From the NCBI GenBank assembly GCA_000934665.2, contig KZ538153.1, positions 62,001 to 114,104 on the forward strand: DNA of 52,104 nt. Reading direction: 5' to 3'. The position numbers and the translations under genes were made by a program. Shown in pieces: positions 45,786 to 49,898 of the stretch. The number at the start of each line of letters is the position of its first letter. The stretch's first letter is position 1. Below the pieces are notes generated by a model, which was not told the origin of the DNA, did not search any database, and saw nothing but the letters and a program-made list of their open reading frames with translations. This stretch comes from Catajapyx aquilonaris (taxonomy: Eukaryota).

Positions 45786-46231
45786 TTATTTCTTGTAATA
45801 TGGATAATATTGATAATATGTTGTAGTAGTGTCCGGGAAAACCGAGTAAGGTGTGACACGTCTGGTCGTACGTCGTTGGTGATGGTGACCGTGATGGTGA
45901 CGGTGGTGATGGCCCATGTGGTGACGATGCCCGTGCTTCAGGTAACCTCCACAGCCCCAAGCAGCGTCGTTCTTGGCATCGGCAGCACCAATGTCGTCGT
46001 CTCCTTCTCCTCCACTGTTGTCACCATCACTCGAATCACCATTGCTCTCATCACTCTTGCTGTCTTCAGCTGACGTGGAATTGCTATCATTGTCACTGCT
46101 TCCCAACACTGTACATGCCTAAAATTCAATTCAGTGAAAAGTTTGTTTGAATAATTATGAATCAACACAGTACATACCAGTACCAGCAGGAGTGTGGTCA
46201 TGAAGAAAAATGTGGTCCAAGTACTATTCAT
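45786..46231 (-). CDS. Small secreted acidic/His-rich protein, paralog A (~128 aa). Exons 46231-46178, 46118-45786
   Basis: Signal peptide MNSTWTTFFFMTTLLLVL|ACTVLG; D/S/G-rich spacer; NDAAWGCGGYLKHGHRHHMGHHHRHHHGHHHQRR; T/Y-rich tail. TATA-like TATATAAG at ~46283-46290; AATAAA at 45728-45723. Confidence 0.85.
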
Positions 46232-46777
46232 ATTCTTCTGATATGGTCTTTGCACCTCTGATCTACAGCACCGTCAAACCTTCTTATATACTGTGGCTAT
46301 TTTTAGTCTTTCCCGTCAGTCTGTCACATTTTAATATTTTTGGCATTTAGGTAAATACCACAAGGTTGACTAAGTATGCGCAATTTTAATCAAGGACTAA
46401 TCCCATACTCTTCATAATGTTACTTCCGGCAGAAATTTACACACAGTTCGATTTAAATATTTTGCAACAGGTGTTTGAATCAATCATTGGCAGGCAGTTC
46501 CGCCATCGCAAGCACTATTTACTTATTAAAAATTAATACTCATCAGTATGTCATCACATTGTGAATGTTATGATTTTTGATAGTAATAAAGGCACATGGT
46601 TTAATAACGTAACAAGAAATTGTGCAGTAAAATTTTATTGGGTGTGCAAACAAGCACTGTCAACATGTGTCAATAACTATTTTTTTTGCAGTCCATATAA
46701 TTTTTTTTTGTAATATTGTTTAGGCCAAAAGAACAAACGCGTCAGTTCCATGCTGTCCAATACTCATATGATTTACA

Positions 46778-47323
46778 TTATTGTGATGAATAATCAGGAA
46801 AGGTATAAGCGGTTGTAGGAGCTTCGGTAGTTGTAGTACGACGACGGGGATGGTGACGACGGCGGTGAGGACGACCATGACCATGATGGTGGCGATGGTG
46901 ATGGCGATGCCCATGGGCGTGCTCGTGCTTCAGGAACCCTCCGCAACCCCAGGCACCATCGTTTCCTGTGCCGTCCACTCCAGTGTCGGAATCGCCTTCG
47001 TAGTGCTCATCACCCCTGCCCCTGTGCCGACGCCTTCCGTCGCCCCTGCTCATGTCTCCATCGTCATCACCACCATCTTCAGAGACCTCCCTTCCTGATC
47101 CTCCATCTTCTCCTGAGCCCTGCTTCTTCTCATTGCTGCTACTGTCTTCTCCACTCTCCTTGCTCTCCTTGCTTCCCAAAGCTCCAAGAGCCTGAAATAA
47201 TAATAATTAACCAAACAATCATCAACATACTGTAATATAATAATAAATAAAATTGTAAATAATTTGGATTACCTGGACCAGTAGGATGGCTAGTAACAGA
47301 AAGGAGGCTGAGGCGATCTTCAT
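46778..47323 (-). CDS. Small secreted acidic/His-rich protein, paralog B (~154 aa). Exons 47323-47273, 47191-46778
   Basis: Signal peptide MKIASASFLLLAILLVQ|ALGALG; acidic spacer; NDGAWGCGGFLKHEHAHGHRHHHRHHHGHGRPHRRRHHPRRRTTTTEAP. TATAAAA at ~47408-47402; AATAAA at 46639-46634. Confidence 0.88.
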
Positions 47324-49345
47324 GGTTGGATTGCAGCTTGATGTACTGCTTCGACCTGCACTTGCTGAAGACTGGACACTTGTTAGGTCAGTACCGAGGC
47401 ATTTTATACCGATTTGTGTCCATTGTTATACAAAATTTAAGCGTCATATATGTTTTTGTGTTACGTAAAAAAATATTCTTACAGTATGTTGCTAAGGCAT
47501 TTTATGTAATGTTGCAATCTGCACACAACGCCGAGAATAATTTTCAAATTAATAAACCATGAAATGACATAAACTGTCATTTTGCAATTTGAATACAATC
47601 CGACATTTAACATTCAATGCTAAAAGTTTGATGATTGCCAGACTATCACATGCTGCAGATTTTAAAAGCCAGTAGCTGCAGTAGCCTACTTCACTTCCTG
47701 TTACATTACCATTCATTTCACAATCTGATTGATCTGATCGATGTTTTCCGGGTCGCATGCACATGAAATAGCTGAAAAATTAACCGTATAATCCCTAAAA
47801 TTATGATTGTCCTTGAAGGCACCGTCACATCCTCATGAACAACTATTATTTTAGTCATTACAGTTAATTTTCCAACTATTTCATGATTGTGTGTATAGAT
47901 TTGGGATAAATGAAACCCAATATGTGAAAAGTATAATCGGGCCATTCGATCAGAAATAACATTTCTGAGAGGCATTGGTTTTCATTGGTTATTGCAGATG
48001 GGATGAAGAGCATAATACGTAAAATTTGTTTCATTCTTCATTAGCGATAGGTATAGACAAGGGATAATGTTGAACTGAAGTGACGAAATTGCCTAAATAA
48101 CTCCTAGACCTTAATAATTAGACCTAGAGAGACATGGCCAATATTTGAGCATAAGTTCATCAGTTCATCAATCTCACAGGAATTTTTTATTTATTGTACC
48201 AGTTTTATTAAATTGTAGGATTTACACTATAGCATTTTCTACTCTTTCTATAGCATATACAGTCATGAGTCCGCAAAATTATTTTGTGTACGGCGTGGTA
48301 GGATACATTCCTATAATATTAGGAAGTTATATTTTACACATACTGCATAATTCAATCGCCTTGCAATAAATTGGTAGCCTATTGCAATAAATTGGTAGCC
48401 TATTGCAATATGGCTGTAATATATATTTTTGCTTGTGTTTGCAATTTTGGATTTTAGTAATTTTTTAAAACTCTTCAATCAAGTTTTGGATGTTAAAAGT
48501 ATTTCTAAATTTCTAAAACATTTCAAACATACATTTTTTTTAAGGTTTTTCTATGAGTTCAGTCGAAGGATTATAATTAATTTTGAATCTGTAATTTTCA
48601 TCATTTATTCCTTTTGTATGATACGGCGCAAATACTACTTCCATTTGCTTTTCCACAATATGCATATTTTTTAACGGTCATTTGCTATGTGAAGTGTTTA
48701 TTCCAAGGTTTATTCCCACTATAGAAAGGAGTATAATCATTTTCCGAAGTCTAAAGCTGAACTTTGTGTGTGTCTGAAGTAGTATAGTAGTTGAAGTTTT
48801 CCTGGTGGAACGTCGCATGCACATGGACACAAAGTGCACAAAATAATGAATGCATGAAATGCATAATGACGTCACATTTGATTGGTTTCGATATTTTAGG
48901 ATTAATTTATTATTTTCAATACGGTAACTCCGAGAAGAATAAAATCTTTATTACGCAGCACATACGTATATACAGTATGTTATATTATTGATTGCAACAT
49001 TGCACTCCACAATTATTTCAGGAGTAGTTTACAGGACCTAAGCAAACCATTGTTAGCGTAATAATTATCACAACAGTGTTGTTCAATTCTCTTTTTCAAA
49101 TCAGTATAGTTGTACTTATAGCTTGTACTGGATTTACCCAAGATTTACCATAGTTTTCAGGGAACACAGAAGTAAACTTGTGGGAATAAGTTTCAATAAT
49201 AAAGTACATAAAATAATATAGTGTGCATAAATTTTATTGATTCAGTGAGGTTTTTATCTGCCACAAATTAGTTCGTGGAGAACAAAATCATTATGGCTTA
49301 GCTCATGTCCGGTGCGACAAATCCTTGAAAAATTCTTGCGATATT

Positions 49346-49898
49346 TTATTTGGATCCAAACACTATGTGGCCATGCTCGTCTGTGTAGTAGCCACTGTCG
49401 CTGTAATCAGTGGAAGGCTGCTCTGAAGGACCCATGTCAGTGGGAGGTGGAGGGGTGGGCCTGCGTGGGTGGTGGCGACGACGATGGTGACCGTGGTGGT
49501 GACGGTGGCGGTGACCGTGACCGTGGGCATCGACGTTCTTCAGGAAACCTCCGCAACCCCACTTGGCATCGTTGCCGCTACCGTCGCCTGCCACATCCGA
49601 GTCTCCTTCGCGGCTCTCGCTGCCGTCCTCTCGTCTTCTGCTGTCGTCTTCACCGCTGTCTTCTCTGCTGTCTTCCCTGCTGTCGTCCCAGTTCAGACCA
49701 TGCTGCTTCATGGTATCAGGAAGATACTCCTGAAGAGTGTCCACAACGTTGTTCTGTCCGTCATCGCCGCTCTCTTCGCTTCCGTACGCCTGAAATAATA
49801 TTACAACAGTGGGCATTAACCGAACCTGTTCCGGAACCGGCTCACGTTGACATTACCTGCACCAATATGACCAGAACCAGAAAATAGGTGACCTTCAT
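49346..49898 (-). CDS. Small secreted acidic/His-rich protein, paralog C (~161 aa). Exons 49898-49857, 49789-49346
   Basis: Signal peptide MKVTYFLVLVILVQ|AYG; acidic DSRE repeats; NDAKWGCGGFLKNVDAHGHGHRHRHHHGHHRRRHHPRRPTPPPP. TATAAAA at ~49970-49964; AATAAA at 49237-49232. Confidence 0.88.

Follow-up and report, generated by a model that had tools for sequence, protein, structure and literature searches.

Three clustered orphan genes for putatively secreted, histidine-rich proteins with a common Trp-Gly-Cys-Gly-Gly motif in Catajapyx aquilonaris

We begin by considering a kind of protein, secreted, disordered and histidine-rich, that is already known from several unrelated lineages. Orphan genes for secreted low-complexity proteins are common in arthropod genomes, and here we describe a tandem trio of genes from a 52,104-nt stretch of contig KZ538153.1 of Catajapyx aquilonaris; this whole stretch is referred to as the window, and its G+C content is 41.5%. 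The three genes, named g1, g2 and g3 from the lowest coordinate upward, lie on the minus strand, and their products share one plan, consisting of a leader, an acidic spacer, a 12-residue motif (ND-[AG]-[AK]-WGCGG-[FY]-LK, present in g1, g2 and g3), a His/Arg tract and a Thr/Pro/Tyr-rich tail. The trio is a genuine orphan family, undescribed as far as our searches reach. The pattern of codon differences indicates purifying selection on a core made up of the motif hinge and the His/Arg block, and g2 and g3 are transcribed. An extracellular material or matrix role is our tentative first choice for the function.

Several described systems offer a comparison. The histidine-rich families of worm jaws, squid beaks, byssus and tube cements are annelid and mollusc, and His-metal, Cys and Tyr/DOPA cross-links together with phosphoserine recur in these materials. 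Cationic antimicrobial precursors with an anionic propiece, such as the Hydra arminins and the alpha-defensin precursors, are built from a leader, an acidic block and a basic part. Histatins and histidine-rich glycoprotein, both from vertebrates, have His tracts that bind Zn and Cu and whose charge shifts near neutral pH. In the sea urchin, according to the available part of the source (PMC5491942), the SpTransformer genes (SpTrf, or Sp185/333) are small and clustered, have a leader exon 1 and an exon 2 for the mature protein, and encode disordered proteins in which a Gly-rich N-terminal region is followed by a His-rich region and then by a C-terminal region, with very diverse sequence outside the core. 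The cyst shell of the branchiopod Artemia contains SGEG1 and SGEG2, orphan, leader-bearing, small secreted matrix peptides of the shell gland that build a protective extracellular layer; a cut at a basic site is described for SGEG2, and loss of SGEG1 leads to lower shell iron (available part of PMC3108945).

The trio resembles SpTransformer in plan only, that is, in having two exons divided between leader and mature protein, clustered small genes, a His-rich region and predicted disorder. No sequence similarity between the two is found; the word-indexed library used in our searches holds echinoderm proteins, with the SpTrf entries themselves unchecked in either of the two protein libraries. 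The differences are that the trio belongs to an arthropod-like lineage, has three genes versus about 50, displays no mosaic of "elements", begins with a strongly acidic N-terminal block, carries RGD in one gene of three, and has a Trp-Gly-Cys-Gly-Gly hinge that the available part of PMC5491942 does not give as an SpTrf feature. The likeness to the SGEG peptides, in whose available text histidine is mentioned 0 times (PMC3108945), is limited to a precedent for orphan matrix peptides.

With the anionic-propiece precursors the trio shares the leader, the acidic block and a strongly basic, His-containing C-terminal part, and the charges roughly cancel; unlike in those precursors, the junction has no conserved processing site and is the best-conserved part, and there is no homology. 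Like the jaw, beak, byssal and cement proteins, the trio products are predicted to be secreted and disordered, are rich in His, Gly and Tyr, and have a cross-linkable Cys, and their oppositely charged, possibly phosphorylated blocks could drive coacervation. They differ from those structural proteins in the lack of homology and in their short His tract, which spans 26-29 residues, is rich in Arg and does not form a long repeat. Histatins and histidine-rich glycoprotein, finally, are without an acidic block or a Cys motif, and again no homology exists.

Gene models and transcripts

The trio spans 45786-49898, which is exactly from the stop of g1 to the start of g3. In a six-frame scan of the whole window, Trp-Gly-Cys-Gly-Gly is found three times, always on the minus strand (45945-45959, 46937-46951 and 49547-49561), and each site falls within a long open frame that has a short, ATG-starting hydrophobic exon upstream. 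A sequence-only reading of this DNA had proposed three same-strand, two-exon genes with a TATA box and a phase-0 intron. The gene models agree with it: they have two exons apiece and give products of 128 (g1), 154 (g2) and 161 (g3) residues, the introns (59, 81 and 67 nt) are all GT..AG and in phase 0, TATA elements stand 59, 85 and 72 nt upstream, and internal stops number 0 in every model. The features, all on the minus strand, are as follows.

45786..46118, minus: g1 exon 2, an open-frame model with stop codon included; acidic spacer, motif (45936-45971), His/Arg tract and Tyr-rich tail
46119..46177, minus: g1 intron, predicted; 59 nt, GT..AG, phase 0
46178..46231, minus: g1 exon 1; 18 codons, hydrophobic leader
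46284..46290, minus: g1 TATA-like heptamer, 59 nt 5' of the ATG
45723..45728, minus: g1 AATAAA, 58 nt 3' of the stop
46778..47191, minus: g2 exon 2, stop codon included; motif at 46928-46963, spacer with two RGD triplets, covered by the RNA run X1 (see below)
47192..47272, minus: g2 intron, predicted; 81 nt, GT..AG, phase 0
47273..47323, minus: g2 exon 1; 17 leader codons
47402..47408, minus: g2 TATA box, 85 nt 5' of the ATG, inside a promoter block common to g2 and g3
46634..46639, minus: g2 AATAAA, 139 nt 3' of the stop; X1 contigs extend down to 46623
49346..49789, minus: g3 exon 2, stop codon included; motif at 49538-49573, X1 depths 690-2365
49790..49856, minus: g3 intron; 67 nt, GT..AG, phase 0, skipped by an X1 contig
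49857..49898, minus: g3 exon 1; 14 leader codons, of which only the 3' 25-26 nt are matched by the spliced X1 contig
49964..49970, minus: g3 TATA box, 72 nt 5' of the ATG
49233..49238, minus: g3 AATAAA, 108 nt 3' of the stop

The G+C content of the trio's second exons is 0.50-0.59 versus 0.32-0.34 in the intergenic flanks. The promoter block around the TATA box is 94% identical over 17 nt between g2 and g3 (47395-47440 and 49955-50000, minus). An upstream ACAATGGAC-type element is also common to the g2 and g3 promoters, and the g1 promoter has diverged. A promoter scan upstream of the trio gives no notable enrichment of metal-response, kappa-B, GATA or ecdysone half-sites.

We turn our attention to the RNA, for which the support comes from one public run (X1) of unrecorded kind, containing 26% of the sampled words of the stretch; contig word depth is a poor gauge of expression. 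The X1 contigs are confined to the exons and untranslated regions (UTRs) of g2 and g3, at depths of ~660-5600, while one intergenic patch stands at ~2 and the other intergenic bins at 0. For g2 the cover runs over about 46623-47283 and includes a 402-nt contig (46784-47185) at depth 2060 with 1 letter different; for g3 it runs over about 49321-49881, at depths of 690-2365. One contig (depth 690.7) skips exactly 67 nt with CT..AC ends on the plus strand, and these are the predicted g3 intron with its GT..AG ends on the minus strand. The sequence-only reading had asked for the introns to be checked against RNA, and in X1 this check succeeds in part: the g3 intron is spliced exactly as modelled, but among the X1 contigs no joint is listed at the g2 intron and there is no cover of g1. 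Direct RNA support is thereby limited to the g3 intron and to g2 exon 2 with its 3' UTR. Both g2 and g3 are transcribed, and their transcripts are apparently abundant in X1.

Two details of these contigs deserve mention. Beyond 49881 the spliced g3 contig departs from the window for 18 letters, in which the g3 frame is uninterrupted and offers no in-frame ATG, and at 49881 itself the window lacks an AG acceptor. This contig therefore leaves unconfirmed the start of the g3 coding sequence (17 nt, ATG included). An allele, an assembly chimera, or an unseen paralogue whose exon 2 is identical could each explain the odd 5' end of the contig. In the 3' UTR of g2, an X1 contig is one letter shorter in the T-run at 46701 (depth 391 of 3280), which is probably a homopolymer length variation.

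The conserved core and the protein plan

The three genes are clear paralogues, with pairwise tblastn E values of 1e-23 to 1e-32. Their conserved core comprises 53 columns, extending from a Glu-Gly-Asp stretch ahead of the motif to the last Arg-Arg. Using Nei-Gojobori counts on the codon alignment of the three genes, we obtain synonymous differences (pS) of 0.69-0.88 in the core, at or near saturation, and nonsynonymous differences (pN) of 0.13-0.30. Outside the core pN is 0.43-0.57, an approximate range because the non-core alignment is uncertain, and the contrast between core and rest gives Fisher P of 8e-8 to 8e-5. Any two of the genes agree at 10 of the 12 motif residues, and use different codons for 1-5 of these. 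Saturated synonymous sites combined with low core pN indicate that the duplicates are old and that purifying selection, and neither recent duplication nor gene conversion, maintains the core. The earlier proposal that retention of the motif implies selection is thus supported, with the core pN standing well apart from that of the remainder.

The selection and the spliced contig bear on the most sceptical alternative, namely that the frames are not genes but chance openings in low-complexity DNA, or dead copies. Low-complexity composition does leave long frames open on the other strand, such as one of 212 residues at 49249-49887 (plus). The spliced contig has minus-strand GT..AG ends, however, purifying selection acts on the minus-strand frame, and each gene has kept an intact leader, TATA box and poly(A) signal. 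We consider this alternative extremely improbable, and for g2 and g3 it is essentially excluded. Antisense coding was considered and rejected, given that the splice ends and the selection favour the minus strand.

The plan of the proteins can be followed from the N-terminus. The best 10-residue Kyte-Doolittle mean of the leader is 3.0-3.2 in all three, and in g2 and g3 the -3/-1 positions are taken by small residues (Val-Gln-Ala); the predicted secretion is our judgement from this hydrophobicity and the -3/-1 reading, not from SignalP. The spacer that follows has 45-75 residues, mostly Asp, Glu, Ser and Gly, with an isoelectric point (pI) of 4.05-4.45, and contains 14, 21 and 23 acidic residues (Asp and Glu) versus 2, 11 and 7 basic ones (Lys and Arg) in g1, g2 and g3, respectively. 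After the motif comes the His/Arg tract, 26-29 residues long with 11-14 His, 6-8 Arg and 3 Gly, which terminates in RR or RRR, and then the Thr/Pro/Tyr-rich tail of 20-37 residues (in g1, 7 of 23 are Tyr); the part after the motif has a pI of 8.5-11.7. The composition of all three products therefore matches the architecture of spacer, motif, His/Arg tract and tail that had been read from the DNA. That reading also spoke of a lone Cys, the one in the motif. The motif Cys is indeed present in all three and is the only one in g2 and g3, but g1 has a second at residue 20, within or beside the leader. RGD triplets occur twice in g2 and in neither g1 nor g3.

The trio proteins are predicted to be disordered. 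AlphaFold2 run on the three-sequence alignment gives a mean predicted local distance difference test score (pLDDT) of 56.0 and a predicted template modelling score (pTM) of 0.13, with no helix and two 3-residue strands. In blocks of 15 residues, the acidic half has a charge of -1 to -6, except for one block of +4 in g2, and that of the His/Arg half, +3 to +7 at neutral pH, climbs to +7 to +11 once His is protonated. The net charges of the exon-2 products of g1, g2 and g3 are -3.7, -2.4 and -12.6 at neutral pH and become +5.4, +8.8 and -2.8 with His protonated. The Golgi kinase Fam20C has S-x-E as its consensus, a pattern found 5 times in each of the g2 and g3 spacers versus ~1.3 in 5000 shuffles (P 0.002 and 0.001).

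The junction between the two charged parts is where the conservation lies. Leading into the motif, the three proteins read AKNDAA, GTGNDGA and GSGNDAK, and the best-conserved stretch crosses from the acidic into the His-containing part. In the three-protein alignment no basic residue is kept within the 10 residues ahead of the motif, and conserved basic clusters sit only after the His tract, so a conserved cut would remove the tail and not the acidic block. The suggestion that an acidic pro-region neutralises a cationic peptide until it is cleaved away is not upheld in that form, since there is no conserved cleavage site and the conservation continues across the junction. Lacking a conserved processing site between its acidic and basic blocks, the protein would rather fit a role in which it acts whole.

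The same observations apply to the possibility that these are precursors of peptide hormones or neuropeptides, in which the motif would be the bioactive peptide and the diverged spacers would be discarded. One short conserved stretch amid diverged spacers in a small, leader-bearing protein has this appearance, as do the basic clusters after the His tract. The motif, though, has no conserved mono- or dibasic site upstream and no Gly-basic amidation signal after it, where just one Lys stands, with His or Asn next to it; the conserved block takes in ~53 columns, the His tract included; and with one Cys an intramolecular bridge is impossible. As a weak further argument, word depths of hundreds to thousands would not be usual in a whole-sample run if the product were a neuropeptide. 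We regard a hormone precursor as very unlikely.

Three readings of the motif Cys were considered and rejected. Thioester proteins (complement C3/TEP) have a Cys-Gly core followed by a Glu-Gln pair and exceed 1000 residues; here Cys-Gly is followed by Gly-[Phe/Tyr]-Leu without Gln, the proteins have 128-161 residues, and there is no A2M/TEP match in Pfam. Autoprocessing of the Hedgehog or intein type at Gly-Cys fails as well, with no Hint domain in Pfam and a disordered His/Arg tract downstream. A lipid anchor on this Cys was likewise dismissed.

Does the trio have relatives elsewhere? In Pfam, 0 families match at E<=1 for any of the three exon-2 products. Queried with g2, a word-indexed library of 5.8 billion proteins gives 211 candidates, none at E<=0.01, and with a three-sequence profile it gives 5831 candidates, of which 1 reaches E<=10 ("rare lipoprotein A", E 8.9) and is taken as chance. 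A HMMER profile of the trio finds 0 matches at E<=1e-3 among 1,835,955,588 representatives, and the ESM Atlas has no usable match. Among PDB sequences there is one marginal match of composition, an insulin-like receptor, over the His tract (E 0.0043, 20.6 bits). In metagenome contigs, 585 matches to protein patterns yield 0 confirmed, and a degenerate DNA pattern of an 8-residue motif finds 34 loci, of which 0/34 have an open, His-rich continuation. Full-text searches of the literature for the motif strings return nucleotide contexts only (degenerate primers and ChIP-seq DNA motifs, among the matches listed) or none, and searches for "histidine-rich" with Daphnia or crustacean terms return nothing that describes the family.

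In the word-indexed library, an isoleucyl-tRNA synthetase exon from the same window matches an unnamed protein at 82% identity and a Daphnia magna protein at 78%, while its insect, barnacle and echinoderm matches have 73-75%. This library thus includes arthropod and echinoderm proteomes, and the blank that it gives for the trio is not merely that of a prokaryote-only collection. All these searches for relatives are limited by the fact that short low-complexity proteins score poorly and often go unannotated, and that the full genome of the organism was not among the sequences searched. Within that reach, the statement that the motif comes from no recognised family stands across Pfam, both large protein libraries, the PDB, the ESM Atlas, metagenomes and the literature.

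Candidate roles

We now consider what such a protein could do. Our tentative first choice is that the trio encodes matrix or other extracellular material proteins, such as those of the cuticle, of an egg envelope, or of a mucous or adhesive layer that is secreted. According to this model, the leader would be removed and the acidic block would probably receive phosphate at its S-x-E sites on its way through the secretory pathway. The acidic block would then pair with the His/Arg block of its own or of neighbouring chains. As the charge of the His block varies with pH and with bound Zn, Cu or Ni, the protein could be stored in soluble form and condense on secretion by self-coacervation, and the condensate could be fixed by His-metal bridges, by the exposed Cys (as a disulfide or a quinone adduct) and by the Tyr-rich tail. 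This model has the appealing feature that the intact acidic and His/Arg blocks, a Cys exposed between glycines, the possible phosphosites and a tail of Tyr, Thr and Pro match the chemistry of cross-linked coacervates, and for this reason we rank it first.

Several observations weigh against a material role. No chitin-binding, named cuticular or other matrix domain is found by Pfam in the exon-2 products, and the composition of the trio would suit a defence protein or a metal buffer too. The g3 product is net negative even with His protonated. The S-x-E enrichment is not significant in the spacer of g1 (2 versus 0.66 in shuffles, P 0.12), and short internal repeats partly account for it in g2 and g3. 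In addition, g1 has no cover in the one run X1, and the high transcript depth of the other two genes comes from that single run of unrecorded kind.

A role in host defence is nearly as likely as the material role. Here the cationic His/Arg block would bind microbial surfaces, either released from the acidic block by proteolysis, as in a classical antimicrobial precursor with an anionic propiece, or as part of whole, disordered, multitasking binders in the manner of SpTransformer. The gene and protein plan resembles that of SpTrf (available part of PMC5491942), with a leader exon and a mature exon, a tight tandem cluster, fast divergence outside the core, a His-rich region and predicted disorder, and the transcripts are apparently abundant. 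The opposed pI values of the two halves (8.5-11.7 after the motif versus 4.05-4.45 in the spacer) and the two RGD triplets of g2 would fit as well. On the other hand, a conserved basic cleavage site is missing from the acidic/basic junction, the secreted product as a whole carries a net negative charge at neutral pH, and RGD is confined to one gene of three. A crude scan counts kappa-B-like sites at 0, 0 and 0 in the 400 nt upstream of g1, g2 and g3, and in the searches made there is no sequence relation to known effectors. A defence role is accordingly a possibility that we hold with some doubt.

The trio products might instead be soluble metal buffers or carriers, whose His/Arg tract and Cys would bind Zn, Cu or Ni in haemolymph, the gut lumen or eggs, so as to store the metal, detoxify it or keep it from microbes. 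A tract with 11-14 His in 26-29 residues beside an invariant Cys, its conservation, and the high transcript depth would all suit such a function. Buffering, however, would need neither the conserved acidic block nor the Trp-Gly hinge nor the Tyr/Thr/Pro tails, and metal-response-element cores number only 0, 1 and 1 in the 400 nt upstream of the three genes. We find this quite unlikely.

A more speculative proposal extends the material and the defence readings together. The Trp-Gly-Cys-Gly-Gly hinge and the His/Arg tract might form a new, compact Cys/His metal-switch module, by which a soluble, self-neutralised polyampholyte would pass into a cross-linked condensate or a microbe-binding form; it would be an invention of the arthropod lineage, convergent with SpTransformer or with the His-rich biomaterial proteins of annelids and molluscs. 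Taken as a whole, we think this proposal rather improbable.

The surrounding window and the significance of the family

By tblastn there is no fourth copy or pseudogene of the trio in the window. The next-best matches, at 40759-40833, are to a simple repeat that reads as poly-His. It lies in an open frame at 40572-41159 (plus) made of a ~17-residue unit repeated three times, then poly-Asp, then Tyr, the poly-Asp reading as poly-His on the opposite strand; this poly-Asp repeat is the source of the only tblastn matches from outside the family. The AT-rich spacer between g2 and g3, inspected by eye, contains a ~20-nt tandem duplication at 48360-48410 and a ~12-nt string shared near 47755 and 48818.

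The nearest neighbours are a single-exon 7tm_7 chemoreceptor at 44528-45541 (minus, E 1.7e-9) and a divergent ionotropic-receptor-like gene at 41827-43281 (plus, Lig_chan, E 2e-5, under the gathering score). The window also contains genes for isoleucyl-tRNA synthetase, an SNF transporter, an ammonium transporter, peroxiredoxin and P450, and nothing links any of these neighbours to the trio in function. This gene content, the introns of 59-81 nt and the matches of the synthetase exon suggest a compact pancrustacean genome. A 490-residue open frame at 8698-10170 (minus), rich in Pro, Thr, Ala and Ser and matching no Pfam family, may be an exon of a disordered protein. There is an assembly gap of 65 N at about 31250-31320.

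Lineage-restricted secreted disordered proteins make up a large and mostly unread part of arthropod genomes. The trio is a clean, small example of them, with three intact genes, two of which are apparently highly transcribed, and a sharply bounded core under selection. Should the trio prove to be just another case of orphan low-complexity proteins that act locally, the finding would be an ordinary one. The simple block design leads to testable predictions, namely condensation driven by pH or metal, dimerisation through the one Cys, and phosphorylation in the secretory pathway. If the trio encodes a material protein, it would give a further case to the field of His-metal biomaterials, which is now mainly annelid and mollusc; if its role is in defence, the trio would have converged on the SpTransformer plan of sea urchins. 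Either way, the motif provides a handle for finding further members in related genomes and transcriptomes.

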